NCBI GenBank assembly: GCA_964473905.1
Contig: CAYYQY010000002.1
Span: forward strand, 7,683 to 71,682
Direction: 5' to 3'
Origin: an uncultured Dehalococcoidales bacterium
Lineage (GTDB): Bacteria; Chloroflexota; Dehalococcoidia; Dehalococcoidales; CAYYQY01
Length of the DNA: 64,000 nt
Program-made: the position numbers and the translations under genes
The notes under the pieces: model-generated
Database searches by the model: none
Told to the model about the DNA's origin: nothing
What the model saw: only the letters and a program-made list of their open reading frames with translations
Part shown: positions 3,006 through 34,061 of the stretch, piece by piece
Numbering within the stretch: position 1 is the stretch's first letter
Layout of the letters: every line of letters starts with the position of its first letter

Positions 3006-3487
3006 TTTACTCTCCTTTAAAATCATATCGTTATATTATTTTCCGATCTGTTGTGCGCGGGCGTACCTCCGCTCACTTGAGCCATACGCATGGAAATTGA
3101 AATCAGATAGCGCAGCGTCACGGTATGGGAACAACCTGGCGCTATCACGTAGAAGGAGGTAATAATATCATGGAGGTACGTGCTCTACCATCGAATATAC
3201 AGGATTATACTCCCAATTTATTAAAAGTAAAATACCTGTTAACATTTTTCCGCGAGTATATTCACCACATAAATCTCCTGGGTTACAGGAAAAAAGTAGG
3301 GGGGACTAATTGACGGGAAGATACTGCGCGGTTCCTCATAGCTCAGGCGGGCAGGGTGGCGGGACGGGTATGGCTCATTTCAGCCGCGCCGCACGGTGAT
3401 AGCGATACGGTAAATATAAACATAAATATTGCCGTATCCAAGGCTCGAAATCTACGGCGTATATTCTCCCCCTTTCTTGTAAGGCTA

Positions 3488-3517
3488 TTGACATGGTTTA
3501 GTCCTTATGTGTATAAT
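3488..3517 (+). promoter_or_regulatory. Sigma-70-type promoter, consensus -35 TTGACA and -10 TATAAT with an 18-nt spacer
   Basis: TTGACA at 3488-3493 and TATAAT at 3512-3517, about 55 nt upstream of the ferredoxin ATG at 3572. Confidence 0.6.
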
Positions 3518-3520
3518 GAT

Positions 3521-3542
3521 ATGCGGTAAATATTTACCGCAT
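3521..3542. promoter_or_regulatory. Perfect 22-bp palindrome ATGCGGTAAATATTTACCGCAT overlapping the predicted transcription start (candidate operator or 5' RNA hairpin)
   Basis: The sequence equals its own reverse complement and starts 4 nt after the -10 hexamer. Its 10-mer CGGTAAATAT recurs at 3408-3417 inside a second inverted repeat. Confidence 0.5.
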
Positions 3543-3571: not shown

Positions 3572-4048
3572 ATGAAACGTATATATGTCAATGAGCAGGT
3601 CTGTATCGGTTGCGGGCTGTGCCTGGTCTATTGCCAGGTCGAGCATTCGCCTTCAAAAGACGTGATTAAAGCCTTCAAGCAGGGAAGCACGCCGCCGTTA
3701 GCGTATGTTGCGGTGGAGTGCCGGGGGCCGGTTTCATTTGCCGTGCAATGCCGTCACTGTGAGGATGCCCCCTGTGTTTATGCCTGTCTCACCGGCGCCT
3801 TGCAGAAGGACCCGGATAGTGGCCTGGTGACGGTTGATACGAGCCGGTGTATCGGGTGCTGGACATGCATGTTGTTTTGTCCCTACGGTGCCGTAAGACA
3901 GGCACCGGATAGAAAGACCATCGCCAAATGTGACTATTGTGGTGACAGGGAAATACCGGCCTGTGTAGCCAACTGCCCGAATGAGGCGCTCGTTTATGCC
4001 GAGGCAGATGATACTGTCCTTGATTTCATGGGGGAAGGTCTGAAATGA
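3572..4048 (+). CDS. 4Fe-4S dicluster ferredoxin-like protein (electron-input module of an archaeal-type glutamate synthase cluster)
   Basis: Several CxxCxxCxxxC-type motifs (CIGCGLCLVYC, CRHCEDAPC, CIGCWTCMLFCP, CDYC...CVANCP). The stop overlaps the hisH start (ATGA at 4045-4048). Confidence 0.8.
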   Translation: MKRIYVNEQVCIGCGLCLVYCQVEHSPSKDVIKAFKQGSTPPLAYVAVECRGPVSFAVQCRHCEDAPCVYACLTGALQKDPDSGLVTVDTSRCIGCWTCMLFCPYGAVRQAPDRKTIAKCDYCGDREIPACVANCPNEALVYAEADDTVLDFMGEGLK

Positions 4049-4668
4049 TTGCCGTTATTGATTATGGTGCCGGCAACCTGCGTAGCGTGGTGAATGCGCT
4101 CACCCGCCTGGGCTATCCGTCCCGGGTAACGAGCCGCCCGGAGGAGATTCCTGAGGCGGCGGCAGTGATACTGCCGGGCGTTGGTGCCGCCGGTGATACC
4201 ATGAAGAACCTTAACGAAAAGGGGCTTGCTCAGGCGCTCCGTGACTATGTGGCGAGCGGTCGTCCTTTCTTCGGCGTTTGCCTGGGCTTGCAGGTCTTAT
4301 TTACCGCTACCGAGGAAGGTGGCTACCACGATTGTCTCGGCATAATTCCGGGTAAGGTGAAAAGACTGCCCCCGTGTCTTAAGGTTCCCCACATGGGGTG
4401 GAACCAGGTGAGGCAGCAATGCGAGCACCCTGTTTTTACGGGGATTAAGGATAATGCCTGCTTCTATTTCGTGCACAGCTACTATGCCGAGCCGGATGAT
4501 AGCGATGTTGCCGCCGGTATTACGGATTACGGGGTATCAATCTGTAGCGTGCTGATTAAAAATAACGTCATCGCTACCCAGTTTCACCCGGAAAAGAGCG
4601 GTGAGCCGGGGTTAAAAATGTACGATAATTTTCTTAAGCTGGCTGGAGTAACAGGCTCTCACGGCTGA
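4045..4668 (+). CDS. hisH: Imidazole glycerol phosphate synthase, glutamine amidotransferase subunit HisH
   Basis: N-terminus IAVIDYGAGNLRSV, nucleophile context FGVCLGLQ, HMGWN, and FHPEKSG (His/Glu of the class-I GATase triad). Confidence 0.9.
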   Translation: MIAVIDYGAGNLRSVVNALTRLGYPSRVTSRPEEIPEAAAVILPGVGAAGDTMKNLNEKGLAQALRDYVASGRPFFGVCLGLQVLFTATEEGGYHDCLGIIPGKVKRLPPCLKVPHMGWNQVRQQCEHPVFTGIKDNACFYFVHSYYAEPDDSDVAAGITDYGVSICSVLIKNNVIATQFHPEKSGEPGLKMYDNFLKLAGVTGSHG

Positions 4669-4687: not shown

Positions 4688-5770
4688 ATGAGCGTTGAGA
4701 AAGTAAAGTATCTGATTATAGGTAACTCGGCGGGCGGTATCGGCGCCGCGGAGGCGATACGCGAGGTGGACAGGGAATGCCCGCTGTCCATTGTTTCCGG
4801 CGAGCCGTACCCGGCCTACTCAAGACCGCGTATTGCCGATTACCTGGCAAAACGGTGTCCACTGGAGGGTATGCTGTTTCGGCCGACACGTTTCTATGCG
4901 GAAAATAACGTCAGGACTTACCTGGGGAAAAAGGTGGTCTCCTTATCACTTGAGACACATACCGCTAGACTTGCCGGCGGGGAAGAAATTGGCTGGGAGC
5001 AACTGTTGCTGGCTACCGGAGGTGTCGCTATAATTCCTCCGCTAGCGGGTATTGAGAAAAACGGTGTCTTCACCTTCACTACCCTGGATGATGCCGTATC
5101 CATTGACCGTTCTCTCCGGTCTGATAGCTCGGCGGCAGTTATCGGCGGCGGGCTTATCGGGCTGAGTGTAACGGAAGCCTTAATAAGACGCGGCATCAGG
5201 GTAACCATCGTAGAAAAAGAAGAGTGCCTACTCAGCGTCATGCTGGATGAGATAGCATCCTTACGTGAGGAGTCGGCTCTCCGGCAAGCCGGTGTGAACG
5301 TTATCACCGGCCACATGGTGACATCTATCAACGGGGATGCGGATAGGGTAAACAGTGTAACGTTGGATGACGCCAGTCTTATTCCGTCAGACCTGGTGAT
5401 AATCGCTGCCGGTGTCCGCTCGGCTATTGAGCTTGTTAACGGTACCGGCATAAAGGTAGGTCGTGGTATAACCGTTGACCGTCATATGCAGACCTCCTGG
5501 CCCGGAGTATATAGCTGCGGCGACGTGGCCGAGGCCTTTGACTTTATCACTAATGATACGGCAGTCACTCCCGTGTGGCCCAATGCGTATTTGGGCGGAC
5601 GGGTAGCCGGACTGAACATGGCCGGAGTGGCTACGGAGTATCCGGGTGGTACGCTGGTGAACTCTTTAAAATATTTCGGTGTGGATATCCTGAGCGCCGG
5701 CATAGTAAATCCGCCCGATAGCAGCTATGAGGTGCTATCGGGGGAGCACGGTGATTGCTTATGCCGTTGA
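4688..5770 (+). CDS. FAD/NAD(P)-dependent pyridine-nucleotide-disulfide-type oxidoreductase (NADH-oxidase-like), apparently missing its C-terminal dimerisation region
   Basis: Dinucleotide folds YLIIGNSAGGIGAAEA and AAVIGGGLIGLSVTEAL, plus the FAD motif YSCGDVAE. The frame ends at TGA soon after ...SSYEVLSGE, where homologues continue for several tens of residues. Confidence 0.75.
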   Translation: MSVEKVKYLIIGNSAGGIGAAEAIREVDRECPLSIVSGEPYPAYSRPRIADYLAKRCPLEGMLFRPTRFYAENNVRTYLGKKVVSLSLETHTARLAGGEEIGWEQLLLATGGVAIIPPLAGIEKNGVFTFTTLDDAVSIDRSLRSDSSAAVIGGGLIGLSVTEALIRRGIRVTIVEKEECLLSVMLDEIASLREESALRQAGVNVITGHMVTSINGDADRVNSVTLDDASLIPSDLVIIAAGVRSAIELVNGTGIKVGRGITVDRHMQTSWPGVYSCGDVAEAFDFITNDTAVTPVWPNAYLGGRVAGLNMAGVATEYPGGTLVNSLKYFGVDILSAGIVNPPDSSYEVLSGEHGDCLCR

Positions 5771-6164
5771 TCTGCTGATACGTAAACACAATCTGCCGGT
5801 AGAGGTGGCCGTCCGGGTTATAGCGCCACCTTTCTGGAGCGACATTGAAAGATGCCCCGCGGCAGAGCAGGAACTGCTCCGCAGCCTGCGTCAGGTGTAT
5901 GGCAGCCTGCTATTAAACGGGCCGTTTGCTATTATCATCGCTCACCAGGGCGAGATGATAGGGCTTACCGACCGCGTCCGGCTCCGCCCGCTTACCGTGG
6001 GCGAAAAAGGGGACATGGTTTATCTCTCCTCCGAGGAATCGGCCATACGGCTGGTCTGTCCCGACCTGGATAAAACGTGGATACCGATGGGCGGTGAACC
6101 GGTGATAGTGAAAGTTGGTGAGTCTCCGAGCCGAAAGCCGCGCTGTGCGGTGGGGGAGGCATAA
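5727..6164 (+). pseudogene. Headless fragment of a class-II glutamine amidotransferase (GltB1-like domain of glutamate synthase); the N-terminal Cys nucleophile region is absent
   Basis: The frame opens only at 5709, after a TAA at 5706-5708. The segment PVEVAVRVIAPPFW...LLLNGPFAIIIAHQGEMIGLTDRVRLRPLTVGEKGDMVYLSSEESAI matches the C-terminal third of the GltS amidotransferase domain (PWDGPAxxxF..G...GAxLDRNGLRP...V.ASE). Confidence 0.65.
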
Positions 6165-6165
6165 A

Positions 6166-6948
6166 ATGCTGACCAAGAGAATTATACCCTGTCTGGATTG
6201 CCAGAAGGGACGGGTGGTGAAGGGGACCAGTTTTACCAGTCTGCGCGACGCTGGAGACCCTGCTGAACGCGCTCGTTTTTACTACGAGGGGAGGGCGGAT
6301 GAGCTGGTACTTTTGGACATAACGGCTACGCCGGAGGCAAGAGATAACATGGTCGAGGTAGTTGAGTGTGTTTCGGACGAGATTTTTATACCGCTTACTG
6401 TCGGTGGTGGTCTGCGCAGTATCAAGGACATGAGGCGCATGCTGCTTGCCGGAGCGGACAAGGTCTCCATCAATACGGCAGCAGTGCAGAATACGTCTCT
6501 TATCACAGAGGGTGCCGATAAGCTGGGCAGCCAGTGTATTGTCGTTGCTATTGATGCCAAACGGGTAGCAGACAGTGACAAACCCCGCTGGGAGGTCTAT
6601 ACGCACAGCGGCCAGAGACCGACGGGTATGGACGCTGTCGCCTGGGCGAAACAGGTGGTGGTACTGGGGGCCGGGGAAATACTGCTCACCAGCATTGATG
6701 CTGACGGGCACCGGGCAGGTTACGATACGGGACTCTACCGGGCCGTTGCCGACACGGTAAGTGTGCCGGTTATTGCGAGCGGCGGTGCCGGTAACCTGGA
6801 AGACATGTATGAGGTGCTGAGTTACGGCCGGGCGGATGCCGTGCTGGCGGCCAGTATCTTTCACTACGGGATTCACTCTATCCGTGAGGCTAAAAAATAC
6901 CTGTCGGCAAAAGGTATGCCAGTACGTATGGAGGAGGAGGGGTTGTGA
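6166..6948 (+). CDS. hisF: Imidazole glycerol phosphate synthase, cyclase subunit HisF
   Basis: [44 protein letters not shown] and IASGGAG align end to end with HisF, and both catalytic Asp contexts are present. ATG at 6166 (the ORF track begins upstream at 6115). The stop overlaps the next start (GTGA at 6945-6948). Confidence 0.9.
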
Positions 6949-8450
6949 AGACATACATATCACCCAGGTTCCGTGTGGAACGGGACCCCGACCGCTGCAT
7001 ACAGTGCCAGGTGTGTGTTAACCAGTGCACCTTTGACACGCACCGCTATGACATTGAAAATGACGAAGTGGTTAGCCATGAAGAAAATTGCGTTGGCTGT
7101 CACCGCTGCGTTGTCTTTTGCCCGACGCGGGCACTCACTGTCAGCCGGAACCCGCTGGAGTACCGGCAGAACTATAACTGGCGCAGTGAGTATATAGAGG
7201 ATATATTAAAGCAGGCGGAAAGCGGCGGCATGCTTCTCACCGGGATGGGTAACGATAAGGGCTATCCCATCTACTGGGACCACCTGGTGCTTAATGCCAG
7301 CCAGGTAACCAATCCGTCTATTGACCCGCTGCGTGAGCCTATGGAGTTGATTACCTACCTGGGCCGCAAACCCGACCGTATAGAGATTGACAGTGACTCG
7401 CTCAGTCTGAAGACCAAAATGGCGCCGCAGGTCAAGCTGGAGGTGCCCATCATGTTTGCCGCCATGTCCTACGGAGCGGTGAGCATTAATGTGCACGAGT
7501 CTATGGCTAGGGCGGCCGCGGTCTCGGGCACGCTCTGGAATACCGGGGAGGGAGGCCTGCACTCCAAACTGTATAAATATGGGAATAATACCATCGTACA
7601 GGTTGCCTCGGGGCGGTTCGGTGTCAATCGGGAGTACCTTGACGCCGCCAGAGTAATTGAAATCAAGATAGGCCAGGGTGCCAAGCCCGGTATTGGCGGG
7701 CACCTGCCGGGAGAAAAGGTAAGCGCCGAGGTATCCTTAACGCGGATGATTCCGGAGGGGACGGATGCCCTGTCTCCGGCGCCGCAGCACGATATCTACT
7801 CCATTGAAGACCTGGCGCAGCTGATTTATGCCTTGAAAGAAGTAACGCAATATGCCAAGCCGGTATCGGTCAAGATAGCCGCCGTCCATAACTCGGCGGC
7901 TATTGCCAGCGGCATGGTGCGTGCCGGGGCGGATATTATTGTAATTGACGGGCTCAGAGGGGCTACCGGTGCCGCACCCAAGGTTATCCGCGATAATATC
8001 GGTATCCCTGTGGAGATGGCTCTCGCCTCGGTAGACACGCGCCTCAGGCAGGAGGGCATACGCAACCAGGCTTCTATCGTGGTCTCGGGAGGCATCAGAA
8101 ATAGCGGTGACGTGGCCAAGGCAATCGCCCTCGGCGCTGATGCGGTGTATATCGGGACGGCGGCTTTAATAGCGCTGGGTTGCCGTGTCTGTCAGCAGTG
8201 CCATACGGGTAAATGTGCCTGGGGTATCTGCACCACCGACCTGGCTTTAACCAGGAGGGTCAACCCGGATATCGGTGCCCGGAGGCTGTCCAATCTCCTG
8301 CGCGGTTGGAGTCTGGAGCTTAAAGAGATGCTGGGCGGTATGGGCACCAATGCCCTGGAAAGCCTGCGGGGTAACCGCCTGCACCTGAGGGGTGTCGGGC
8401 TCACCGACACGGAGCTTGACATTCTGGGAGTAAAGATGGCAGGAAGTTAA
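6945..8450 (+). CDS. Glutamate synthase FMN-binding subunit (archaeal-type GltB2) with an N-terminal 2x[4Fe-4S] ferredoxin domain
   Basis: [11 protein letters not shown] and [12 protein letters not shown] at the N-terminus, then [32 protein letters not shown] and the C-terminal [18 protein letters not shown]. Confidence 0.9.
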
Positions 8451-8452
8451 AA

Positions 8453-9214
8453 ATGACGATAGATATTGAAAGTAAGGTACCAATAATAGATGCCCGTGGC
8501 ATCCGCTACCGCGAACTGAATGCCATGATAAGAGATTGTGTTTCCGGCGGCTCGAGGCAAATAGAGCTCAGGAATGTCTGCGGGCAGCGATATATCGGCA
8601 CCAGCCTTAATAAACCGGTTGAGATTAACATTACAGGTATACCGGGCAATGACCTGGGGGCATTTATGGACGGGCCGAGGATTACTGTCCGCGGGAATGC
8701 TCAGGACGGCTGCGGCAATACCATGAACGAAGGGGAGATTATTATTCACGGGCATGCCGGAGACATAGTCGGGCTTTCCGCCCGGGGCGGTAAAATCTTT
8801 GTCCGTGATGACGTCGGTTACAGGGCCGGTATTCATATGAAGCAGTATCAGGATAAGAGGCCGGTGCTGGTCGTCGGCGGCACTGCCCAGGACTTCCCCG
8901 GCGAATACATGGCGGGGGGTATTCTGATATTGCTGGGTCTGAACCTGGGAGAAGCAGAGTCGCACCGGGCTAATTTTGTCGGTACCGGGATGCACGGTGG
9001 GGTTATCTACCTGAGAGGCCACATTGATGATTTCCGGCTCGGTAAGGAGATAGGTATGGCTGAACTAAATGACAGCGATTACCGCGTTTTGGAGACATAT
9101 ATTGGTGAGTTTGCCGGGTATTTTGGATATAATACCGGGGACATTTTAAACCATAAATTTACGCGGCTGTCCCCTCTCTGGCTGCGGCCTTACGGCAGGA
9201 TATATACTTATTAA
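8453..9214 (+). CDS. Glutamate synthase GXGXG-repeat subunit (archaeal-type GltB3)
   Basis: Repeated glycine-rich beta-helix blocks ITGIPGNDLGAFMDGPRITVRGNAQDGCGNTMNEGEIIIHGHAGDIVG...GGKIFVRDDVGYRAG. The start lies 2 nt after the gltB2 stop. Confidence 0.88.
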   Translation: MTIDIESKVPIIDARGIRYRELNAMIRDCVSGGSRQIELRNVCGQRYIGTSLNKPVEINITGIPGNDLGAFMDGPRITVRGNAQDGCGNTMNEGEIIIHGHAGDIVGLSARGGKIFVRDDVGYRAGIHMKQYQDKRPVLVVGGTAQDFPGEYMAGGILILLGLNLGEAESHRANFVGTGMHGGVIYLRGHIDDFRLGKEIGMAELNDSDYRVLETYIGEFAGYFGYNTGDILNHKFTRLSPLWLRPYGRIYTY

Positions 9215-9297
9215 GGGCAAAGGTGGATAATTATATAAACAAGAGCCAGCGGTCAAGACGACAATGAAATTTGGGAAAAGTTAAAAGGAGGCTCAAC

Positions 9298-10680
9298 ATG
9301 CCGGATAAACATGTATCGCAAGAATTTGGGGGAGATGAGGAAAGCACCACACTGTTACGCAAAAGGGAAGCCGTACTCCAGAAGGCAAAGGAGCATAATG
9401 TAAAGTTCATCAGGCTGTGGTTTACCGACATACTGGGGTTCCTCAAGAGCTTTACCATAACCGTTGAAGAACTGGCAGGGGCCATGGAGGAAGGCATGGG
9501 CTTTGACGGCTCTTCAATCCAGGGGTTCGCCCGTATTGATGAAAGCGACATGGTGGCGTTGCCTGATCCCGATACTTTCCGGGTATTGTCGTGGCGACCC
9601 CGGGAGAATAGTGCCGTAGCCCGGATGTTCTGTGATGTGCTGAAGCCCGGCGGTGAGATCTTCGAAGGTGACCCCAGGTATGTACTCAAGAAGAATCTAA
9701 AGCGGGCAGCGGACATGGGTTACACGTTCTATGTCGGGCCGGAGTTGGAATATTTCTACCTGCGTGATGACAAAGGTACCGAGCTTCTGGACCAGGGTGG
9801 CTACTTTGATATGACGCCGCGGGATGCCGCTACCGACCTGAGGAAAGAGACCGTGCTTACTCTGGAGGATCTGGGTATTGGCATTGAGTACTCGCACCAT
9901 GAGGTCGCTCCCAGCCAGCATGAGATAGACATGCGGTATACGGATGCTTTAACCATGGCCGACAACGTGATGACCTACCGTCTGGTGGTTAAAGACGTAG
10001 CGCTACAAAACGGGGTCTATGCCACATTCATGCCCAAGCCGGTATTCGGCATTAACGGCAACGGCATGCATGTTCACCAGTCGCTGTTTAAGGGTGAGCG
10101 CAACGTTTTCTTTGACAAAAATGATAAGTACCACCTGTCCGGGATAGCCAGGAGCTATATAGCCGGCCTATTAGAACACGCACCGGAAATCACGGCGGTC
10201 ACCAACCAGTGGGTCAACTCCTATAAACGGCTGGTTCCCGGCTACGAGGCGCCGGTTTATGTATCCTGGGCCCGGCGTAACCGCTCCGACCTGGTCCGGG
10301 TGCCGGAGTACCGGCCGGGGAGAGAAAAATCAACCAGGATTGAATTCAGGTCACCAGACCCGGCCTGTAACCCTTACCTGGCTTTCAGCGTCATGCTGGC
10401 CGCCGGGCTGGAAGGTATTGAGGGAGAATACAAAATTCCGGAGCCGATAGAAGAAAACATTTACGAGATGAGCGAAGAGGAGAGGCAAAAAAGAGGTATT
10501 AATACACTGCCGCCCGATCTACTGGAAGCTATACGTCTTGCCGAGAACAGTAAGCTGGTGCGAAAGGCTCTCGGCGAGCATGTTTTCCATGCCTTTATTG
10601 CCAATAAGAAAATTGAGTGGCATCAGTACCGGTCTCAGGTAACAGAATACGAGATTAAGAAATACTTGCCCATTCTGTAA
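9298..10680 (+). CDS. glnA: Glutamine synthetase, type I
   Basis: FDGSSIQGF, NGNGMHVHQSLF, SWARRNRSDLVRVP and RIEFRSPDPACNPYLA. ATG at 9298 follows AAAGGAGG (9284-9291). The ORF track begins upstream at 9271. Confidence 0.92.
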   Translation: MPDKHVSQEFGGDEESTTLLRKREAVLQKAKEHNVKFIRLWFTDILGFLKSFTITVEELAGAMEEGMGFDGSSIQGFARIDESDMVALPDPDTFRVLSWRPRENSAVARMFCDVLKPGGEIFEGDPRYVLKKNLKRAADMGYTFYVGPELEYFYLRDDKGTELLDQGGYFDMTPRDAATDLRKETVLTLEDLGIGIEYSHHEVAPSQHEIDMRYTDALTMADNVMTYRLVVKDVALQNGVYATFMPKPVFGINGNGMHVHQSLFKGERNVFFDKNDKYHLSGIARSYIAGLLEHAPEITAVTNQWVNSYKRLVPGYEAPVYVSWARRNRSDLVRVPEYRPGREKSTRIEFRSPDPACNPYLAFSVMLAAGLEGIEGEYKIPEPIEENIYEMSEEERQKRGINTLPPDLLEAIRLAENSKLVRKALGEHVFHAFIANKKIEWHQYRSQVTEYEIKKYLPIL

Positions 10681-10858: not shown

Positions 10859-13800
10859 ATGCGTCAAGGGGGAAGTCCTGAAGTAGAGAAAAAGGTAATC
10901 ACCATTCTTAAAGTTCTAAGTGAGTCCTCGGAATCGCTGGGCTCAATCACGATAGCCAGAGAGCTCAGGCGTTACGGCGTATTCTTAACGGAGCGGGCGG
11001 TGAGGTATCATCTCAAGATAATGGATGAGAGGGGATATACCTACTCTCTGGGCCGCGATGGTAGAATACTGACGCCAAAAGGTATGGATGAGCTGGCTAT
11101 AGCTCTCGCCCCGCAACAGGTAGGCTTTATTCTAAATAAGCTTGAACTGCTGGCTTTCTACACCACTTTTAACCCGGAGACAAAGACCGGCAATGTGCCT
11201 ATCAATACCTCTCTCATAGATAAAGACCAGTTCGGCGATACGCTGGCAGCCATGGCGGACGCCTTTAAGGCGGGTATATGCGTGAGTGACTTGGTAGCTA
11301 TGGCCACCGAAGGTGACAAGCTGGGCTCGGTGGTCATCCCTACCGGCAAGATAGGTCTGGCTACCGTGTGCAGTGTCGTTATAAATGGTGTGTTACTGAA
11401 ATCGGGTATCCCGGTAGATTCCAGGTTCGGCGGACTGCTGGAAGTCATAGATTCCAAACCGCAGCGCTTTGTGACCGCCATAAATTACAACGGTACTTCC
11501 GTTGACCCCTCCGAGCAGTGCATTCTTTCCGGTATGACCAGTGTGCAAAAAGTAGTTGAAACCGGCAGCGGTAAGCTGCTCGCCAATTTCCGCGAAATAA
11601 TAGCCCCGTCGCGGTCAGCCGTTGAAGAAATAATAGCCTCACTTAAAAAGGCGGGTATCGGCGGTGTGTATGTTTTGGGTAATACCAGTGAGGTCACCTG
11701 CAAAATCCCGGTAGAGCTTAACAAGGTCGGTATGGTCCTCTTGGGCGGATTAAACCCGGTGGCGGCTGCCATTGAGCAGGGGTTTAAAATTGAGAACGCA
11801 AGCGAGAGCGGGACGATTGATTATCAGCGTCTTAAAAAATTCTCACAGCTTGACGGGGTGCCGAAGCAGGCGGTGATGGCTAGTAGAAGGCAGCTTGGTC
11901 CCGGTTATCAGGAGACTACTAAACACGAGCCGCATAAACTTGGCAGCGGTTCACCTGAGCTTGACGAGCTTTTACAGGGGTTTCAAGACGGTGACAACAT
12001 CGTATGGCAGATAGATAGTCTGAGCGACTACACCCATTTTGCGGAGCTATTTGCCGACCAGGCTACCCGGGAGGGGCGTGAGTGCCTCTATTTCCGGTTT
12101 GCGCTGCACCAGGCTATTCTCAAGCCCCGTGCCGGAGTAACTATCGTAGAAATTGAACCGTCACCCGGATTTAATTTTTTCAGCGAAAAAGTGAGCAGCA
12201 TCATCGAGGAACGGGGCAGTAATGTTTATTATGTTTTTGATAATCTGTCAGCGCTGGTAGCCAGCTGGGCTACCGACGAGCTTCTGTCCGACTTCTTCCG
12301 GGTAACCTGTCCGCATATACTGGAAGCAGGCGCGGTAGCCTACTTCGCGCTAACCCGCGGGCAGCACGCCCACACCGCTATCGCTCGGATACGGGATACT
12401 ACCCAGATACTGATCGACATCTACCATATGCAGGGTGCCATGTACCTGCATCCCCTGAAGGTATGGGGGCGCTACTCGGCCCAGATGTTCCTGCCGCACC
12501 TTATCTCAGAGGCAGGATGGTCGCCGGTCTTCCAAAGTGGCGAAGCAGCCAGAATATCTTCATCCATGTATAAACAGCCGCTCAGTGTCGCCGTGCCCTC
12601 TATTGCTCCTTGGGAAAGTGTATATGCCAAGCTTATGCAGTTTCGCCAGGCGCGGGGAAAGCTGGATGAGAGCGACCCGGAAATAAAATCTCTCAAGCAT
12701 GAGCTTACCCGGATGATTATCGGCGAACACAGGTCATTTAACCGGCTCGCCAGTAAGTACTTCACCGTGGATGACCTCATTGAAATCAGGAACCGCATCA
12801 TCGGCACCGGTCACATCGGCGGTAAGGCCGCCGGTATGTTGCTCGCCAGGCGTATCCTGTTGACGGAAAAGGGTGAGGTGGACTATTCACAGGTTCTTGA
12901 GCCTCACGATTCGTTCTATATCGGCTCGGACGTGTTTTTTACCTTTCTGGTTAATAACGACCTGTTTCAGCTTGGCCTGCAGGTCAATAAGGACTGGCAA
13001 ATCTCAGCGGAGGAGTTTGAAAAAATCGAGCAGCTTTTCCTGAATGGGGAATTCACTCCGGAGATAGTCGGGCAGTTTCGGGATATGCTGGACTATTTTG
13101 GCCAGGCACCTATTATCGCCAGGTCCAGCAGCTTGATGGAAGATAGCCTGGGCAATGCCTTCGCCGGTAAGTATATGAGCATTTTTTGCCCTAACCAGGG
13201 TGACCCCGAAGAGCGTCTCGAGGAGTTCCTGCATGCCGTCAAGCTCATTTACGCCAGTGTGCTTAACCCGGATGCCGTCTCTTACCGGGTGAAACAGGGG
13301 CTTTATGAAAGTGACGAGCAGATGGCTATACTGGTGCAGCGTGTATCCGGGACAGCATACAAGCACTATTTCTTTCCACCTCTTGCCGGCGTAGCTTTTT
13401 CCAAGAATTTATACCGGTGGGCTGACCGTATTGACCCGCAGAAGGGGATAATCAGGCTTGTCTTCGGCCTGGGAACCCGGGCGGTTAACCGTGTTGGTGG
13501 TGACTATCCCCGGATGATAGCCATATCTCACCCGCAGCTCCGTCCGGAGTACGGTGCCCGGATAGCCAAGTACTCGCAGCACAATATGGATTTGCTTGAC
13601 CTGAAATCAAACATGTTCACCTCCAGACTGGTTACGGATGTGCTTGGCGATTACGATTATCCTAACCTGCGCCTTATCGCATCGCAGATGGAGGATGGTT
13701 ATACCCACGATGTCACCAGCATTTCCCCTGAGGCATCAGCTACGTATCTCCTTCTGACATTTAACAACCTTACTGAAAAGACACCGTTTGTTAAAATCAT

Positions 13801-14542
13801 GGGTGATATGCTTACCAGATTGGAAGAGGCCTATGGCTATCCCATAGATTCCGAGTTTACGGCTCACGTGAGACCCGATGGTGAGGTGAGGGTTAATCTA
13901 TTGCAGTGCCGCTCACTCAGGTTGCCCGGCACGTCACTATCTGTTGAAATACCGGAAAACATACCTGCCGAGCGGACATTATTCACGTCCAAGCGCTTCA
14001 TAAGCGGGGGCATGGTACAAAACATACGCTACATCCTGTATATAGACCCGGTCAAGTATGCTGCAACAGCGCCGGAGGCCAAAAAAACGCTGGGTAGAGT
14101 GGTGGGGCGTGTCAACAAGCACCCGTCTATTATTGAGGGCAAGATAATGATGATGGGGCCGGGCAGATGGGGTAGCAGCAACACCGAACTGGGGGTAAAT
14201 GTCGGCTATGCGGACATTGATAATACCTCCGTTCTGGTAGAGATTGCCCGTGAGGAGACAGGGCATATCCCGGAGGTGTCCTACGGTACTCGTTTCTTTC
14301 AGGATCTGGTTGAGGCAAATATCATGTATTTGCCCGTTTACCCCGGCGACCCGGATACTGCCTTTAATGCGGCGTTCTTTGACTCCTCACCCAACATAAT
14401 CGGCGAACTCCTGCCCGAGACAGCCGGGTTTGACGGTGTGGTACAATTAATTGACGTTCCAGCCGTAACCGGCGGGCAATACGCGCAAATTATAGCCGAG
14501 CTGCAAAATCAGAGGGCGATTTGTTTTACCGGCCCTGAGTAG
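10859..14542 (+). CDS. Fusion protein: NrpR-type nitrogen regulator (wHTH + DUF128) - KaiC/RecA-like domain lacking a P-loop - PPDK_N (PEP/pyruvate-binding ATP-grasp) domain
   Basis: aa 1-335: ITILKVLSES..ERAVRYHLKIMDERGY..GKIGLATVCSVVINGVLLKSGIPVDSRFGGLLEV..NYNGTSVDPSE (NrpR pattern). aa ~355-560: SPELDELLQGFQDGDNIVWQIDS... (KaiC-like, no GKT). aa ~640-end: IGGKAAGMLLARR, IIARSSSLMEDS, FAGKY, MAILVQRVSG (PPDK_N). The frame is a single uninterrupted ORF with a GGAGGGA SD before the ATG. Confidence 0.75.
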   Translation: MRQGGSPEVEKKVITILKVLSESSESLGSITIARELRRYGVFLTERAVRYHLKIMDERGYTYSLGRDGRILTPKGMDELAIALAPQQVGFILNKLELLAFYTTFNPETKTGNVPINTSLIDKDQFGDTLAAMADAFKAGICVSDLVAMATEGDKLGSVVIPTGKIGLATVCSVVINGVLLKSGIPVDSRFGGLLEVIDSKPQRFVTAINYNGTSVDPSEQCILSGMTSVQKVVETGSGKLLANFREIIAPSRSAVEEIIASLKKAGIGGVYVLGNTSEVTCKIPVELNKVGMVLLGGLNPVAAAIEQGFKIENASESGTIDYQRLKKFSQLDGVPKQAVMASRRQLGPGYQETTKHEPHKLGSGSPELDELLQGFQDGDNIVWQIDSLSDYTHFAELFADQATREGRECLYFRFALHQAILKPRAGVTIVEIEPSPGFNFFSEKVSSIIEERGSNVYYVFDNLSALVASWATDELLSDFFRVTCPHILEAGAVAYFALTRGQHAHTAIARIRDTTQILIDIYHMQGAMYLHPLKVWGRYSAQMFLPHLISEAGWSPVFQSGEAARISSSMYKQPLSVAVPSIAPWESVYAKLMQFRQARGKLDESDPEIKSLKHELTRMIIGEHRSFNRLASKYFTVDDLIEIRNRIIGTGHIGGKAAGMLLARRILLTEKGEVDYSQVLEPHDSFYIGSDVFFTFLVNNDLFQLGLQVNKDWQISAEEFEKIEQLFLNGEFTPEIVGQFRDMLDYFGQAPIIARSSSLMEDSLGNAFAGKYMSIFCPNQGDPEERLEEFLHAVKLIYASVLNPDAVSYRVKQGLYESDEQMAILVQRVSGTAYKHYFFPPLAGVAFSKNLYRWADRIDPQKGIIRLVFGLGTRAVNRVGGDYPRMIAISHPQLRPEYGARIAKYSQHNMDLLDLKSNMFTSRLVTDVLGDYDYPNLRLIASQMEDGYTHDVTSISPEASATYLLLTFNNLTEKTPFVKIMGDMLTRLEEAYGYPIDSEFTAHVRPDGEVRVNLLQCRSLRLPGTSLSVEIPENIPAERTLFTSKRFISGGMVQNIRYILYIDPVKYAATAPEAKKTLGRVVGRVNKHPSIIEGKIMMMGPGRWGSSNTELGVNVGYADIDNTSVLVEIAREETGHIPEVSYGTRFFQDLVEANIMYLPVYPGDPDTAFNAAFFDSSPNIIGELLPETAGFDGVVQLIDVPAVTGGQYAQIIAELQNQRAICFTGPE

Positions 14543-14681
14543 CCGGTATTCATTTATCCAGGCCCCCTATCTGGCTTTGGGCAGAAACGCCAAGCTATCA
14601 TGGTGCAGCAAAGCCGGCTTGCCTGGCATCAAAACTAGTTTTATGAGGTCGGTTTTATTATGTTTATCGGTGTGGTAGAAT

Positions 14682-14909
14682 ATGCTCGACATGAAAGAGG
14701 ACATTGATAAACCTATAGACGAGCTGTTTACCAAGATAAGACTAAAGCTGCTTGATATCAGGCAAACAGACCCGGAGTTAGTTGAAGAGCTGAAGAACCT
14801 GCTGGTTCAGCTTGAAGACTATGTGCAGTCGCTGATAATAGATTCGATGAAGTTACAGGATCTAAAAGACGCTCGCAAGAAAAAGAGGCAGGAAAAGAAT
14901 AACGACTGA
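14682..14909 (+). CDS. Hypothetical small coiled-coil protein
   Basis: 75-aa charged, heptad-like sequence with no recognisable family. The start is uncertain (ATG at 14682 or 14691). Confidence 0.3.
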   Translation: MLDMKEDIDKPIDELFTKIRLKLLDIRQTDPELVEELKNLLVQLEDYVQSLIIDSMKLQDLKDARKKKRQEKNND

Positions 14910-15165: not shown

Positions 15166-16806
15166 ATGACGCAGAATGGGGCTATTAGCGGACATCAGTT
15201 CAAGATGATGTTTGCTACCGCTACCGATTGGCTGGGGAAAAGCAGCGAAGAGATAAATGCTTTGAATGTCTTCCCGGTGCCTGACGGTGATACCGGGACC
15301 AACATGACGCTTACCATGCAGTCCAGCGTAGAAGAGGCGGCGCGGGTCATCGAGATTAACGTGTCCTCTATTGCTGAAGCCATGGCCAGGGGGGCTTTGC
15401 TGGGGGCGAGGGGCAACAGCGGTGTCATACTATCGCTTATCTGGCAGGGTCTCGCCCGAAGTATTGCCGGTAAGGATAGCATCGGCAGCCGGGATTTGGC
15501 CGATGCCTTCAAGCAGGCGGAGGAAGCGGCCTATTCGGGAATAAATAATCCCGTGGAAGGTACCATTTTAACGGTATTGAAAGAGGTAGCCCGGGACAGC
15601 CGGTGCCAGGTGGCTAAAGGTGAAGGCAACGTAGTTGCCGTTTTGCAGGCGGCGGTGGATGCGGCGCGGGAGGCGGTAGCCAATACGCCTAACCAGCTGC
15701 CGGTGTTAATGGAGGCCGGGGTAGTGGATGCCGGGGGGCAGGGACTGTATACCCTGCTGGAGGGGGTGCTTCTCTCTCTCACGGATAAAACCGGCGAGTT
15801 GCAGTCCGGCAAATCAGAGATGATAAGCAGCGGTGCGTACATCAGTGCCTACCAGCCGGTAATAGATGATGGTAGCGAAATACCCTATGGCTACTGCACC
15901 CAGTTTTTGGTGCGGGGTGAAGACCTGGACCCGGATGCCATAACGGCCGGTCTCAGGGATAAGGGGGAGTCGCTGGTGGTGGTTGGTAGCGGGTCTGCCG
16001 TGAGAATTCATATTCATGCTCTGGACCCGGGCGAAATTATACACTATGCCGTCTCGCTCGGTACGCTTCATGATATTAACATACGTAACATGGACGAGCA
16101 GGTGGCCGATATGCTGACAGCCCAGACCGGGGAGTCGCCGGCTATCAAATCTGGAGTGGCTGTGATTGGCGTAGTCCTGGGTAGCGGGCTATCGGAGCTG
16201 TTTATTAAGCTCGGGGCAGCCGCTGTTGTTCCGGGAGGGCAGACGATGAATCCCAGCACTCGGGATATTCTTCAGGTGATAGATGCCGTGCCGGCTAATG
16301 ACATCATCGTTCTCCCCAACAACAAGAACGTAGTACTGGCGGCACAGAAAACCAAGTCATTATCAGAGAAGAATGTGGTGGTTATACCTACGGTTAGTAT
16401 TCCGCAGGGCATAGCCACCCTGGTGGCTTTTGAGCCCGAAGCAGACCTGCAAACCAATATTGGCCTTATGACCGAAGCCAGAGTAACAGTTAAAACTATA
16501 GAGGTCACCCGTGCCACACGTTCTACCAAACTGAATGGTTTTAACATTCACAAGAACCAGTCTATAGGTATGCTGGACAATAAGCTACTGGCCGTTGGTG
16601 ATGAAGCCGCTGACGTCATAATTGATATTCTGGCTAAAACCGATCTCAGCGAAGCCGAAATGGTCACCCTCTACCGGGGTGCTGACACAGAAGATGCTGA
16701 TGTGGAGCGTGTGAGCGCTGCCATTTGCCAGCATTATCCGGAGCTGGACGTTGATATTATTAAAGGGGGCCATCCTCACTACAACTATATCATCTCCGTA
16801 GAATAA
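15166..16806 (+). CDS. DAK2 domain-containing protein (YloV family)
   Basis: LNVFPVPDGDTGTNM and ARGNSGVILS motifs. The 546-aa length and the downstream DegV partner are typical. Confidence 0.85.
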   Translation: MTQNGAISGHQFKMMFATATDWLGKSSEEINALNVFPVPDGDTGTNMTLTMQSSVEEAARVIEINVSSIAEAMARGALLGARGNSGVILSLIWQGLARSIAGKDSIGSRDLADAFKQAEEAAYSGINNPVEGTILTVLKEVARDSRCQVAKGEGNVVAVLQAAVDAAREAVANTPNQLPVLMEAGVVDAGGQGLYTLLEGVLLSLTDKTGELQSGKSEMISSGAYISAYQPVIDDGSEIPYGYCTQFLVRGEDLDPDAITAGLRDKGESLVVVGSGSAVRIHIHALDPGEIIHYAVSLGTLHDINIRNMDEQVADMLTAQTGESPAIKSGVAVIGVVLGSGLSELFIKLGAAAVVPGGQTMNPSTRDILQVIDAVPANDIIVLPNNKNVVLAAQKTKSLSEKNVVVIPTVSIPQGIATLVAFEPEADLQTNIGLMTEARVTVKTIEVTRATRSTKLNGFNIHKNQSIGMLDNKLLAVGDEAADVIIDILAKTDLSEAEMVTLYRGADTEDADVERVSAAICQHYPELDVDIIKGGHPHYNYIISVE

Positions 16807-16946
16807 TAAAATCGCGCTGGCAAGTAGTTTTTCTGGCAAAAGTATATATTTTTAGATCCCCCCGGTTTATAATTGGCGATTATACTGGTCGTGTCTTATT
16901 GTTGTTTTAAGGTTTTTTCATTAAAACAAGATAGGAGGCTTTAGCA

Positions 16947-17816
16947 ATGTCCAACGTTCTTATTGTAACCGACAGTATATCCGGTATTACCAGCGATATA
17001 GCTAAGGAATATAATATCAGGGTGGTGCCCGGTGCCAACATAATTTTTGACGGTAAGTCCTATCCGGATGGTGTTAGCATCACCGCGGAAGAAGCCTACG
17101 AGATGGCACAGAAGGACGCCGACAAGTTCTCCACGTCAACACTTACCCCCGGTTATCTTCTGGACCTGTACCGCCAGTTCAGCAAAGAGTCTGATAAAAT
17201 AGTCGTTATCAACTTTTCCTCCGCCGTAAGCGCGGCCTATACCATCGCCTGCCGAGCGGCGGAAATGCTCAAAAAGGAGTCGCCCCAGACAGACATAAGG
17301 GTAATTGACTCAAAAACCGTGGCTGCCGGCCAGGGGCTGCTGGCTATCGCCGCCGCCAAAGCGGCTGCCCGGGGCATGGACATAGAGCAGATTATTAGTT
17401 TCGTAGGCGAGACCAGACAGCAGACAGGCTGCATTATGATGCTGGATACGTTAAAATATGTCTATCGGACCGGTCGCTACTCGAAGTCAACCGCCAGAAT
17501 AGCTTCTCTATTGCATATAAAACCGTTGAATAACGTAACCGCGGACGGTAACTTTGAAGTTTTTGACAAGGTTAGAAAGAGGAAGGATGGCTACAGGCGA
17601 CTAATAGACTTTATTAAAGGTGAAGCCCAAACAGACTCGCTCTATTTCATGATAGAACATGCCAGTGCTCCTGAGCTTGCCGAAGAGCTTTCCGAGCAGC
17701 TAAGCCAGGAATTCAACAGCCTCGGGGTGATAATAGGTCCCTACAGCCCGATAATGGGCTATGCTTCCGGGCCGAAATGCCTGGTGGTTGGTTTCCAGCC
17801 CGAGATGAACGGGTAA
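16947..17816 (+). CDS. DegV family fatty-acid-binding protein
   Basis: N-terminus VLIVTDSISGIT with a DegV-like layout over 289 aa. AGGAGG SD before the ATG. Confidence 0.8.
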   Translation: MSNVLIVTDSISGITSDIAKEYNIRVVPGANIIFDGKSYPDGVSITAEEAYEMAQKDADKFSTSTLTPGYLLDLYRQFSKESDKIVVINFSSAVSAAYTIACRAAEMLKKESPQTDIRVIDSKTVAAGQGLLAIAAAKAAARGMDIEQIISFVGETRQQTGCIMMLDTLKYVYRTGRYSKSTARIASLLHIKPLNNVTADGNFEVFDKVRKRKDGYRRLIDFIKGEAQTDSLYFMIEHASAPELAEELSEQLSQEFNSLGVIIGPYSPIMGYASGPKCLVVGFQPEMNG

Positions 17817-18662: not shown

Positions 18663-19802
18663 ATGGAGGCTATGGACAGATTGTCTTCTCATCTGAAGAC
18701 AAGGTTGGGCGATTTGCGTAAGGTAAAAAAGGAGGGGCGCAAGATTATCGGATATCCGCCGGGGGGTTATCTACCCGAGGAGTTGGTACTGGCGTCCGGG
18801 GCCATACCGATATGCCTGATACGAGGGGGCGACCATGCTCCCGTTGAACTTTCCGGAGCTTATATTTGCCGCTGGATAGATACTTTCTACCGGGCACAGA
18901 TTGGCTACGGGATTTCCGGGGACGATCCGTACTACAACGTTATTGATCTTCTGGCCGTAGCCATGACGGATAATCACGTCCGTGCCCTGGAAGACGTTCT
19001 TGATTATAACACCGATATTGAGGTATTTACCTTTGGTGTACCTCATATGAAAGAAGATAGCACGTTCAAGTATTATTTACATGGTATAAACACTCTTAAA
19101 GCAAAACTCGAGGAGTTTACCGGGGTAGAGATTACGGATTCGAAACTTAAAGAAACCATCGCTTTGTGTAACCGGGAAAGGGAGCTTTTAAAGGAGATTA
19201 GCTTGCTGCGGAAGAGTGTTCCGGCACCTATCAGCGAGAAAGACTATGTGGCACTGCATCACGGTTCCCTGCTGGCCGACAAGGTGTTTATGGTTGAGAT
19301 TTTAGAATCTGTTCTGGATGAGCTAAAGCAGCGGCCGGTACCGGCGAGCGAAGGTCCCAGGATCCTGTTAACCGGCTCAACGTTAGCTATGGGGGACTAT
19401 AGAGTTCTTGATTCGGTAGAGGACGCCGGCGGCAGCATTGTCATTGAAGAGTTTGCCGAGGGCATCAGACCCTACTGGCATAATGTAAGTCCGGACGGAG
19501 ATTTAATGTCTGCCCTGGCTGACTGCTATTTTATGCAGCGAGTGCCGCCTGCCTGGTTCCGGCCGGGGAAAGAAAGGCTTGATTTTGTCATCAAACTGGC
19601 TAAAGACTTCAACGTGTCCGGGGTTATCTGGTACCAGCTTATGTACCGCGAATCTTATAAGACGGAGTCGTACTACTTCCCGGATAGGCTCAAGAAAGAG
19701 ACCGGTTTACCTATGCTCACGCTGGAATCAGACTATGACCAGTCCGAGACAGAGCAGATGCGGACACGGGTTGAGACCTTTGTGGAGACTATAAGGAGAT
19801 AG
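18663..19802 (+). CDS. 2-hydroxyacyl-CoA dehydratase / benzoyl-CoA reductase family subunit (HgdB/BcrC-like)
   Basis: 379 aa. IIGYPPGGYLPEELVLASGAIPICL near the N-terminus and the C-terminal LESDYDQSETEQMRTRVETFVETI signature of the BcrC/BadD/HgdB family. Confidence 0.75.
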   Translation: MEAMDRLSSHLKTRLGDLRKVKKEGRKIIGYPPGGYLPEELVLASGAIPICLIRGGDHAPVELSGAYICRWIDTFYRAQIGYGISGDDPYYNVIDLLAVAMTDNHVRALEDVLDYNTDIEVFTFGVPHMKEDSTFKYYLHGINTLKAKLEEFTGVEITDSKLKETIALCNRERELLKEISLLRKSVPAPISEKDYVALHHGSLLADKVFMVEILESVLDELKQRPVPASEGPRILLTGSTLAMGDYRVLDSVEDAGGSIVIEEFAEGIRPYWHNVSPDGDLMSALADCYFMQRVPPAWFRPGKERLDFVIKLAKDFNVSGVIWYQLMYRESYKTESYYFPDRLKKETGLPMLTLESDYDQSETEQMRTRVETFVETIRR

Positions 19803-19804
19803 AT

Positions 19805-21214
19805 ATGGCAAACTATTATGACGAGCTACTCAGACTTTGCGGGTTTGAGGACGAAGAAATTATAGAAGAGAAACCTAGAATTGACAGTGCCTTTGCCAGG
19901 CTGGAACTGGGTCCTGAAGATATTAAGACAGCTGAGCAATGGGTGCGGCAGAACCATGATATTGAGCTCAGGGGCGTACGTAAACTGCTCCGGGCATGGC
20001 TGCTGGAGCTTATTGATATGGTGCTGGCCAAGGACGAGGGTAAGTTGATAGTCTATTACGGCTTTCCCAGTATTCCCGGTCCGGGTATGGCTACAAAGGT
20101 AGCGGCCATGGATGCGGGCATAGATCTCTATATTGCCTGCCCCGATGTGGTGCTGTGTCACACTATGGGCCAAATATTTAATAAACTTAATCCTTTACTG
20201 GAGGCGGGTGAGCAGGGCGGGCTGCCACCGGGGCACGGCCTGTGCTCGCTGCAACAGATAAGAAACGGTGGCATGGCCAAAGGGGTAATCCCGGTACCGG
20301 ACCTGGTTACCGGTTCCAGCTATTTCTGCGACATGGGTTCCAAGGCGGATGAACTGCTTCACGAAAAATACGGTCACCCGGCAATATATGTTGATGGCTC
20401 TATGGATTCCAGGTGGGGTGAGTACCCCGATTACCTGCCTGAGAGGGTAGAGTTTCTGGGCGCACAGATTAATAAGCTCTTTGCTGCCGTCAAAGAAGTC
20501 CTCGGAGTAGAGGTGACTAATGAGGCCTGGGACAAAGCCATGTCCATTAGCCGTGAGCTCTTTAAGGCTCAGGGCCGCCTTACCCGCTTGATGACGGCTG
20601 ACCCGCAGCCACTCAGCGCCGTGGCACTGGGGCTGGCGTTACAGCTGACTACCGGCTCTACCGGCAGGGCTATTTCAGAAGGGCCCGAGGCAGTCTCTAT
20701 CCTGTGCGACGAGGTTGAAAAGAGAGTTGAGCAGGGCATCGGCGTTGTGGAAAAAGGAGCACCGCGAGTGCTGAATTTCATTGCCCCGTTTTCCGACCCC
20801 AGCATAATGCGTATGATGGAAGATGCCGGTCTGGCTATGTCGGTAACCCTGTTGAGTGTTCCCGGTAAGAAGTATCCGCCCAGCAGCTACACCACACTGG
20901 GTGAAATACGGGCCGAGAGAGAGATGAGAGACGGTCATTACCACGGCGGTTTCGGTCTGGCCAAACGGTTTGAAGAAGCTGCCCGTGATCTGGATGTGGA
21001 CGGGGTCATGTGGGGTTACCTGTTCAATTGCCGGCCGCTGGCTGAGACTTCGCATACCGTCAAGAAATGGGTAGAGGAGACTACCGGCATACCTACCATA
21101 GCTCTGGAAATGGATGCATACGACAGCCGTAACTACAGTGCGGCTGCATTGAGAACCAGGGTAGAAGCCTTTGCCGAGATGCTGAGAGCTAGAAAGGCGG
21201 CTGCCGGTGAATGA
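19805..21214 (+). CDS. 2-hydroxyacyl-CoA dehydratase / benzoyl-CoA reductase family subunit (HgdA/BcrB-like), paralogue 1
   Basis: 469 aa with the C-terminal ALEMDAYDSRNYSAAALRTRVEAFAEML family signature and conserved Cys contexts (LCSLQQ, YFCDMGSK, LFNCRP). AAGGAGA SD. Confidence 0.7.
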   Translation: MANYYDELLRLCGFEDEEIIEEKPRIDSAFARLELGPEDIKTAEQWVRQNHDIELRGVRKLLRAWLLELIDMVLAKDEGKLIVYYGFPSIPGPGMATKVAAMDAGIDLYIACPDVVLCHTMGQIFNKLNPLLEAGEQGGLPPGHGLCSLQQIRNGGMAKGVIPVPDLVTGSSYFCDMGSKADELLHEKYGHPAIYVDGSMDSRWGEYPDYLPERVEFLGAQINKLFAAVKEVLGVEVTNEAWDKAMSISRELFKAQGRLTRLMTADPQPLSAVALGLALQLTTGSTGRAISEGPEAVSILCDEVEKRVEQGIGVVEKGAPRVLNFIAPFSDPSIMRMMEDAGLAMSVTLLSVPGKKYPPSSYTTLGEIRAEREMRDGHYHGGFGLAKRFEEAARDLDVDGVMWGYLFNCRPLAETSHTVKKWVEETTGIPTIALEMDAYDSRNYSAAALRTRVEAFAEMLRARKAAAGE

Positions 21215-27448: not shown

Positions 27449-27523
27449 TGGAGCGGGAGACGAGGCTCGAACTCGCGACCCTCTGCTTGGGAAGCAGATG
27501 CTCTACCACTGAGCTACTCCCGC
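27449..27523 (-). tRNA. tRNA-Gly (anticodon CCC), CCA encoded
   Basis: Reverse complement GCGGGAGTAGCTCAGTGGTAGAGCATCTGCTTCCCAAGCAGAGGGTCGCGAGTTCGAGCCTCGTCTCCCGCTCCA folds as a cloverleaf: 7-bp acceptor stem, anticodon loop TTCCCAA, T-loop TTCGAGC, discriminator U. Confidence 0.92.
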
Positions 27524-33884: not shown

Positions 33885-34061
33885 AGCTAGATAATGTCCG
33901 GTGACAGTACTTTATCAAGGGTAGTTAATATTAGGGCCTGGACAACCTCGCTTCAGGTAGCAATATCCGTGAGCGTCTGTTGAGTTAGCGGAGTTTTATT
34001 GTCTTCTTGAAGTAAGCTATAATGCGGTAGAGTTTTACCCGTATCGTCATTCTGATGGGCT

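Follow-up and report, generated by a model that had tools for sequence, protein, structure and literature searches.

The window analysed here, a stretch of 64,000 nucleotides from contig CAYYQY010000002.1 of an uncultured Dehalococcoidales bacterium, carries on its plus strand a gene (10859..14542; 1227 codons plus stop) in which a repressor of the NrpR type is joined to a large C-terminal module. The frame of this nrpR-module fusion gene was open without interruption, as a preliminary description of the DNA had stated, and an identical 1227-amino-acid protein was encoded by a separately assembled contig in ENA, which differed from the window by two single-nucleotide polymorphisms in 7982 nt. 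Because this independent contig encodes the same protein, the fusion is genuine and not an assembly artefact.

Operon, promoter and putative operator

The fusion gene follows a series of genes that all lie on the plus strand. These encode a 4Fe-4S ferredoxin-type protein (operon gene 1, 3572..4048; Pfam Fer4_11, E 3e-18), a class-I glutamine amidotransferase (4045..4668; GATase, E 4e-22), a pyridine-nucleotide-disulphide oxidoreductase that is possibly GltD-like (4688..5770; Pyr_redox_2, E 1e-48), a HisF-like protein (6115..6948; His_biosynth, E 7e-78), the flavin mononucleotide (FMN) domain of an archaeal-type split glutamate synthase (GOGAT) with an N-terminal Fer4 domain (6945..8450; Glu_synthase, E 6e-138), the GXGXG subunit of glutamate synthase (8453..9214; GXGXG, E 6e-33), and glutamine synthetase (GS), GlnA (9271..10680; Gln-synt_C, E 1e-131, plus Gln-synt_N). 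These Pfam assignments agreed with the location originally given for the regulator, directly 3' of glnA and a split GOGAT. The end of glnA lies 178 nt upstream of the fusion gene, and the order glnA, nrpR was also found for the closest NrpR relatives.

A sigma-70-type promoter, TTGACA-N18-TATAAT (3488..3517, plus strand), was the sole 12/12 consensus match between positions 3000 and 15300. In a scan of the same region, the best-scoring terminator-like hairpin (14527..14548, plus strand) lay over the stop codon of the fusion gene, and no terminator of comparable quality was found between glnA and the fusion gene. From this arrangement, we infer one autoregulated operon of approximately 11 kb, extending from the ferredoxin gene through the fusion gene.

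Three nucleotides past the -10 box of this promoter, a perfect palindrome, ATGCGGTAA-ATAT-TTACCGCAT (3521..3542), forms a putative NrpR operator. Its core, GGTA-N6-TACC, shares a 4-6-4 geometry with the methanogen form of the operator, which in Methanococcus maripaludis is reportedly GGAA-N6-TTCC. Related sites were found in other loci. In the closest operons with a standalone NrpR (L071 and L073; gene order hisF-like, gdh, glnA, nrpR, with gdh encoding glutamate dehydrogenase, GDH), TTGCGGTAA-N4-TTACCGCAA corresponded to the window arms TGCGGTAA-N4-TTACCGCA with differing spacers and occupied the same promoter position, directly past the -10 box in L071. None of the other loci was found to contain all 16 nt of the window palindrome, and L071 and L073 were matched only after trimming to half-sites. 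In a bacterial nrpR, hisF-like, gdh, module operon on a metagenome contig (L005), which encodes an NrpR with 51 % identity to the window NrpR, the palindrome AGGAA-N6-TTCCT, of the operator type reported for methanogens, was found in the matching position, directly after the promoter (L005 4725-4740).

Further operator-like sequences were noted in the window. An imperfect, long-spaced inverted repeat (GATACGGTAAATAT...AAATATTGCCGTATC, 3403-3440), approximately 100 nt upstream of the main operator, shares the CGGTAAATAT half-site and could be an auxiliary site. A weaker, tentative site (TATAATGCGGTAGAGTTTTACCCGTA, 34022..34043), with an identical left and an imperfect right half-site, lies approximately 20 nt upstream of a gene for a regulator with GAF and OmpR-type winged-helix domains (34062-35480). 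The HisF-like gene (PF00977) was found to recur in nitrogen operons beside gdh, glnA, nrpR or GOGAT genes, including those of the relatives mentioned above (L071 4497-5267; L073 4486-5256; L005 5764-6531). In the window it is accompanied by a class-I amidotransferase, and it may belong to an unusual split amidotransferase or GOGAT system.

Domain structure of the fused protein

Residues 1-331 of the protein constitute, as judged from sequence, a complete repressor with one sensor domain. A winged-helix DNA-binding domain (residues 14-79; 10898..11095, plus strand; Pfam HTH_12, E 5e-18) is followed by a single NrpR regulatory domain (residues 88-326; 11120..11836, plus strand; NRD1_2, E 8.5e-78), for which the full length of the Pfam model was covered. 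In a search of PDB sequences, the structure of the NrpR-like protein MJ0159 (3nek) was matched at E 2e-22. The identification of the N-terminal third as an NrpR with a winged helix and one DUF128 (PF01995) sensor was thereby confirmed. At 36 invariant columns, the NrpR half showed no private changes. Its closest relatives among the matches listed (at least 120) were all standalone proteins, and the best matches of both protein halves came from metagenome-assembled genomes (MAGs) of Dehalococcoidia and other Chloroflexota.

The junction between the two halves was located by alignment. The closest standalone NrpRs (331 amino acids, 72-73 % identity) end in KSFWQL, which aligned with KKFSQL (ending at residue 331) in the window protein, and Asp332 of the latter occupies the position of their stop codon. 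Standalone relatives of the module begin 4-8 residues ahead of a conserved SG..LD motif, at approximately window residue 356, where the window has no start codon. Since NrpRs stop at the equivalent of Leu331 and modules start near residue 356, residues 332-355 (DGVPKQAVMASRRQLGPGYQETTK; 11852..11923, plus strand) form a linker that has a counterpart in neither parent family. This 24-residue segment is hydrophilic and stop-free, and had low predicted local distance difference test (pLDDT) scores in the model described below. In L071 (approximately 9050-9120) and L073, a hairpin terminator and then, on the opposite strand, a tRNA-like gene, recognized by eye, follow nrpR; in the window, this position is taken by the linker and module.

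An origin of the junction by a 1-nt frameshift at TGATG (codon 340) was considered and rejected, since frame 0 tracks the NrpR relatives to their last residue. It was also disfavoured by the standalone modules, which start approximately 16 residues past Met340.

The module is not peculiar to this regulator. By alignment, residues 356-1227 constitute a complete representative of a family of standalone proteins of approximately 870 amino acids, which is widespread. The nearest member (P0002) was 69 % identical and collinear over 867 residues, and the other top matches of the full-length search were all proteins of approximately 871 amino acids that aligned to residues 356-1227 at 57-69 % identity. 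An exhaustive search yielded 4119 relatives of the query among cluster representatives (E <= 0.001). Members of the family, which number in the thousands, are annotated in databases as 'PEP/pyruvate-binding domain-containing protein' (PEP, phosphoenolpyruvate) or, wrongly, as PEP synthase, and occur in the cultured organisms Methanococcoides methylutens, Kineothrix alysoides and Desulfobotulus alkaliphilus. They share a layout of a KaiC-like pseudo-ATPase, a helical region, a PPDK_N-type ATP-grasp domain and a C-terminal domain; the last three form a core that is joined to varied N-termini. PADLOC models of defence systems gave no match.

The core was also observed in other architectures of ATP-grasp and C-terminal domain (P0122, P0160, P0174, P0197 and others). 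Variants included a tandem duplication (1484 amino acids), bare forms of approximately 600 amino acids and forms of approximately 770 amino acids with other N-termini; P0160 and P0197 carry an extra C-terminal nucleotidyltransferase domain.

An AlphaFold2 model of residues 340-1227 had an overall pLDDT of 80.8 and a predicted template modelling score (pTM) of 0.83, with pLDDT of about 85-90 in the KaiC-like region (residues ~356-560; 11924..12538, plus strand). In Foldseek searches of this model against PDB, the first ~225 module residues matched KaiC (7s65_B, E 1e-10, 227 columns, root-mean-square deviation 3.8), FlaH (4yds, TMt 0.63) and RecA, in line with the KaiC/RecA-like fold proposed for residues ~355-560. 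No Pfam model matched this region, and hints at the sequence level were limited to NCBIfam KaiC (E 0.08, residues 358-414) and DUF7504 (E 0.16). The reported absence of a GK[ST] motif held; the Walker A position, which had been read at GFQDGDNIVW, lies slightly downstream, where the strand DNIVWQI is followed by D-S-L-S-D-Y in the window protein. In all 59 aligned family members this position reads D-x-[LI]-x-D-Y and no GK[ST] is present, while a Walker-B-like hhhFD motif, FD(N/C)LS, is kept in the family. Because an acidic motif replaces GK[ST] family-wide, canonical ATP binding by the KaiC-like domain is unlikely.

A helical linker region, assigned from the secondary structure of the model (residues ~561-645; 12539..12793, plus strand), leads to the PPDK_N-type ATP-grasp domain (residues 652-1022; 12812..13924, plus strand; Pfam PPDK_N, E 8e-45). 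Foldseek against PDB showed the latter to resemble rifampin phosphotransferase (5hv3, E 9e-14) and HpeI (9goj). Three ATP-grasp motifs, GGK, RSSSLxED and FAGKY, show no variation in the family and are intact in the window protein. The preliminary description had extended PPDK_N over residues ~640-1227; the ATP-grasp domain was recovered, whereas residues 1025-1227 form a separate domain. Its further statement that a swivelling phospho-His domain and a PEP-utiliser barrel are lacking agreed with the searches: in a search for the swivelling (mobile) domain, residues 1015-1227 gave no Pfam match at all even at E 10, and neither Pfam nor NCBIfam matched a PEP/pyruvate TIM barrel anywhere in the fused protein. 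The NCBIfam model PEP_synth scored 36 bits, far below its cut-off of 740, and a profile of the module returned only weak matches to PEP synthase ATP-grasp domains among PDB sequences.

The C-terminal alpha/beta domain (residues 1025-1227; 13931..14539, plus strand) is conserved and belongs to no recognised fold family. Modelled alone, it reached a pLDDT of 90.1. Its signature motifs are GPGRWG, an invariant Glu1128 and P-[ED]-x-S-x-G-[TS]-H-F-F-x-D-x-x-E. Two assignments were tried and rejected, as neither was backed by a Pfam match or a significant Foldseek match in PDB: a divergent PEP-utiliser swivel, suggested by the G-T-H motif, and a Pol-beta nucleotidyltransferase, suggested by a G-S...D-I-D pattern. 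The second acidic position of that pattern is mostly Asn or Ser in the wider family, which counts against the nucleotidyltransferase idea.

At the position of the signature His, alignment showed Arg1145 (codon CGT, 14291..14293, plus strand) in the window protein. Of 58 genome-derived members, 57 have His here, as do 125 of the 127 representatives of clusters; the two exceptions among the latter carry Arg (P0258, 794 amino acids) and Gln (P0269, 769 amino acids). Arg at the signature position thus recurs, rarely, elsewhere in the family. With Arg in place of this near-invariant His, the fused module might not carry out the chemistry that is normal for the family. Two private changes were counted at 103 invariant columns of the module half, as compared to 0-2 in other members, so that, in the alignment, the window module has no excess of changes besides Arg1145.

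Gene neighbourhoods of the module family

The genomic context of the family was analysed in 62 genome loci, a convenience sample recovered with peptide patterns derived from the query. In 35 of these loci, a gene for GDH, NrpR, GOGAT or GS occurred no more than 5 kb from the module gene; in 22, such a gene was its immediate neighbour. At the same distance of 5 kb, GDH was found in 31/62, NrpR in 16/62 and both in 14/62 loci. By our estimate, chance alone would place a gene with about one copy per genome at such a distance in well under 1 % of genomes.

Arrangements differed between lineages. Several Dehalococcoidia showed the order module, nrpR, gdh, and elsewhere the order nrpR, hisF-like, gdh, module was found. 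In one arrangement, gltB and gltD precede the module with a gap of 7 nt. Methanosarcinales carried GOGAT parts, the module and then a convergent nrpR, and in Planctomycetota, Lentisphaerota and others gdh is followed by the module with gaps of 7-90 nt. Separate nrpR-module tandems occurred at two loci (L048 and L054; gaps of 31 and 39 nt). In distant phyla, the neighbouring GDH proteins were verified to be ELFV dehydrogenases, and nrpR and module genes were neighbours, in differing arrangements, in at least five phyla. Module genes recur in genomes beside those for GDH, NrpR and GOGAT.

Outside the operon, a bacterial RNase P RNA of class A (41565-41927, minus strand) and a tRNA gene (27452-27523, minus strand) were identified in the window, from which it follows that the host is a bacterium. 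A 75-amino-acid open reading frame without a Pfam family (14682-14909), which was called as a gene on the ENA contig, lies directly downstream of the fusion gene. Farther on lie genes for a FakA-like/DegV pair and for two proteins similar to the D component of 2-hydroxyglutaryl-CoA dehydratase (15166-17816 and 18663-21214). These genes are unrelated to the fusion and fit an anaerobic bacterial host.

Proposed function, alternative explanations and known systems

Our confidence is evenly balanced that the gene represents a genuine, lineage-specific fusion of a repressor with its partner, in which the NrpR half autoregulates and the module is an ATP-using partner. The NrpR half is probably an autoregulator of the GOGAT-glnA operon. 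It would bind TGCGGTAA-N4-TTACCGCA and repress its own ~11-kb operon (ferredoxin, amidotransferase, GOGAT parts, glnA and fusion gene), and rising 2-oxoglutarate would free it from the DNA, as for methanogen NrpR, whose binding to nif and glnA promoters depends on 2-oxoglutarate (PMC9765008). Less confidently, we propose that the module family may be an ATP-using factor at the glutamate/2-oxoglutarate node that acts with NrpR, a partnership suggested by its repeated adjacency to nrpR. Fusion would tether repressor and module at 1:1, so that binding of a nucleotide or ligand by the module could modulate repression. With Arg at the signature position, the fused copy probably retains ATP binding and partner contacts without the His-dependent step; if that step is lost, a role in sensing or scaffolding would be left, and the fused module would act as a sensor or scaffold rather than as an enzyme. 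The gene neighbourhoods lend plausibility to the earlier idea of a nucleotide-dependent nitrogen regulator. A broader proposal is only tentative and in our judgement improbable on balance: many bacterial phyla and Methanosarcinales would possess, in the ~870-amino-acid family, a hitherto overlooked ATP-dependent regulator at the glutamate node, which would act on or with GDH, GOGAT and NrpR and form a further layer of nitrogen control besides PII, GlnD and GlnE. The fusion would then be a 'Rosetta stone' that reveals direct contact with a 2-oxoglutarate-sensing repressor.

Several observations weigh against these interpretations. The fused protein formed a singleton cluster in the protein search, and no second fusion was found in two protein searches beyond the two near-identical contigs; an additional search with NrpR only did not return the fused protein itself and was therefore unusable for excluding further fusions. 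Two scans of JGI metagenomes, one with junction DNA and one with a degenerate pattern for the linker, gave no matches. Since the fused form is known from a single population, long-term selection for it is unproven. In line with what had been anticipated, no characterised protein of this architecture emerged from the protein searches, the junction scans or the literature, where no description was found of either the fusion architecture or a tie between the family and nitrogen genes. The substitution of Arg for the signature His could just as well be a sign of decay of the module, and residues 1025-1227 had no Pfam match and a best Foldseek match in PDB that was not significant (E 0.16). Many family members lack nearby nitrogen genes, among them those of Bacillota, Desulfobotulus, a Syntrophales MAG and the cultured Methanococcoides and Methanohalophilus, and adjacency to nrpR may reflect co-regulation only, with no physical partnership. 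As to the DNA site, the exact sequence GGAA-N6-TTCC had no match in the window, and the putative operator is drawn from three orthologous operons.

The alternative that survives best, though we consider it unlikely, is that the fusion is an accident, neutral or mildly deleterious, of recent in-frame placement, with the halves working or failing independently and the module losing function. Shared transcription would then be the whole regulatory meaning of the fusion. Such an event would be easy where nitrogen operons end in nrpR, as they did in the three contexts examined, and the singleton distribution of the fused form, the standalone state of its closest listed NrpR relatives and Arg1145 would all fit. 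However, 101 of 103 invariant residues of the module and all 36 of the NrpR half are kept, and a frame of 888 codons has remained intact on a branch that is approximately 31 % diverged from the nearest relative. The hydrophilic, stop-free nature of the linker also speaks against an accident, and the nrpR-module neighbourhood in at least five phyla, with its differing arrangements, speaks for a functional link on which a fusion could build.

Considerably less probable is that the module is an active ATP-dependent enzyme of glutamate/2-oxoglutarate metabolism, whose turnover or substrate occupancy feeds back on repression and which tolerates Arg1145; the fused protein would then be bifunctional like BirA, NadR or PutA. 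Full conservation of the ATP-grasp catalytic motifs, the phosphotransferases that are its closest structural relatives, the linkage of the family to GDH and GOGAT genes and the members with Arg or Gln at the same position are in favour of an enzyme, whereas the retention of His by 125 of 127 representatives suggests that this residue is essential, and the phospho-carrier domain and substrate barrel of known dikinases are absent. A join of two genes by a sequencing or assembly error (missed stop or frameshift), hinted at by an in-frame ATG at codon 340 within gcggTGATGg, where the +1 frame reads a stop overlapping a start, can be dismissed as extremely improbable, since the second assembly carries the same unbroken frame, the fit of frame 0 to the NrpR relatives up to their final residue neither needs nor allows a frameshift before the junction, and the usual module start lies ~16 residues after Met340 and lacks a start codon.

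To our knowledge, NrpR has been studied almost only in methanogens. The window presents an NrpR in a bacterium, with a plausible operator and a predicted autoregulated GOGAT-glnA operon. Beyond this, the fusion directs attention to a large family that clusters with GDH, NrpR and GOGAT genes across many phyla. If this family regulates or aids ammonium assimilation, it would fill a gap for organisms in which the control of GDH is not understood. The uncharacterised partner family is a more valuable lead than the NrpR variant itself, and the pairs NrpR plus module and GDH plus module are offered as testable protein pairs.

Among known systems, the enzyme-repressor fusions BirA, NadR and PutA combine a DNA-binding repressor and a nucleotide-using domain in one chain that is encoded with the regulated pathway. 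The window protein, which would share this layout, is built from domains unrelated to theirs. With KaiC, FlaH (ArlH) and RecA, the window protein shares, in the predicted model, a RecA-like core fold, as well as the Walker-B-like hhhFD motif, whereas its family has D-x-[LI]-x-D-Y where GK[ST] is expected. PEP-utilising dikinases (PEP synthase, PPDK, rifampin phosphotransferase and HpeI) likewise have a PPDK_N domain with GGK and RSSS-ED motifs, but the window protein lacks their swivelling His domain and PEP/pyruvate barrel and has a different C-terminal domain. The standalone ~870-amino-acid family agrees with the window module in its four-part architecture and in its motifs; unlike its members, the window copy is fused to NrpR, has no start codon of its own at the usual position and carries Arg in place of the signature His. 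Methanogen NrpRs (that of M. maripaludis, the one-domain NrpRI of Methanosarcina and 3nek) resemble the window protein in combining a winged helix with a regulatory domain and in their link to glnA, and the repeat at the window promoter has the 4-6-4 geometry. The window regulator differs from them in its bacterial host, in a half-site that reads GGTA instead of GGAA, and in a C-terminal extension of 896 residues that is unmatched in described NrpRs.

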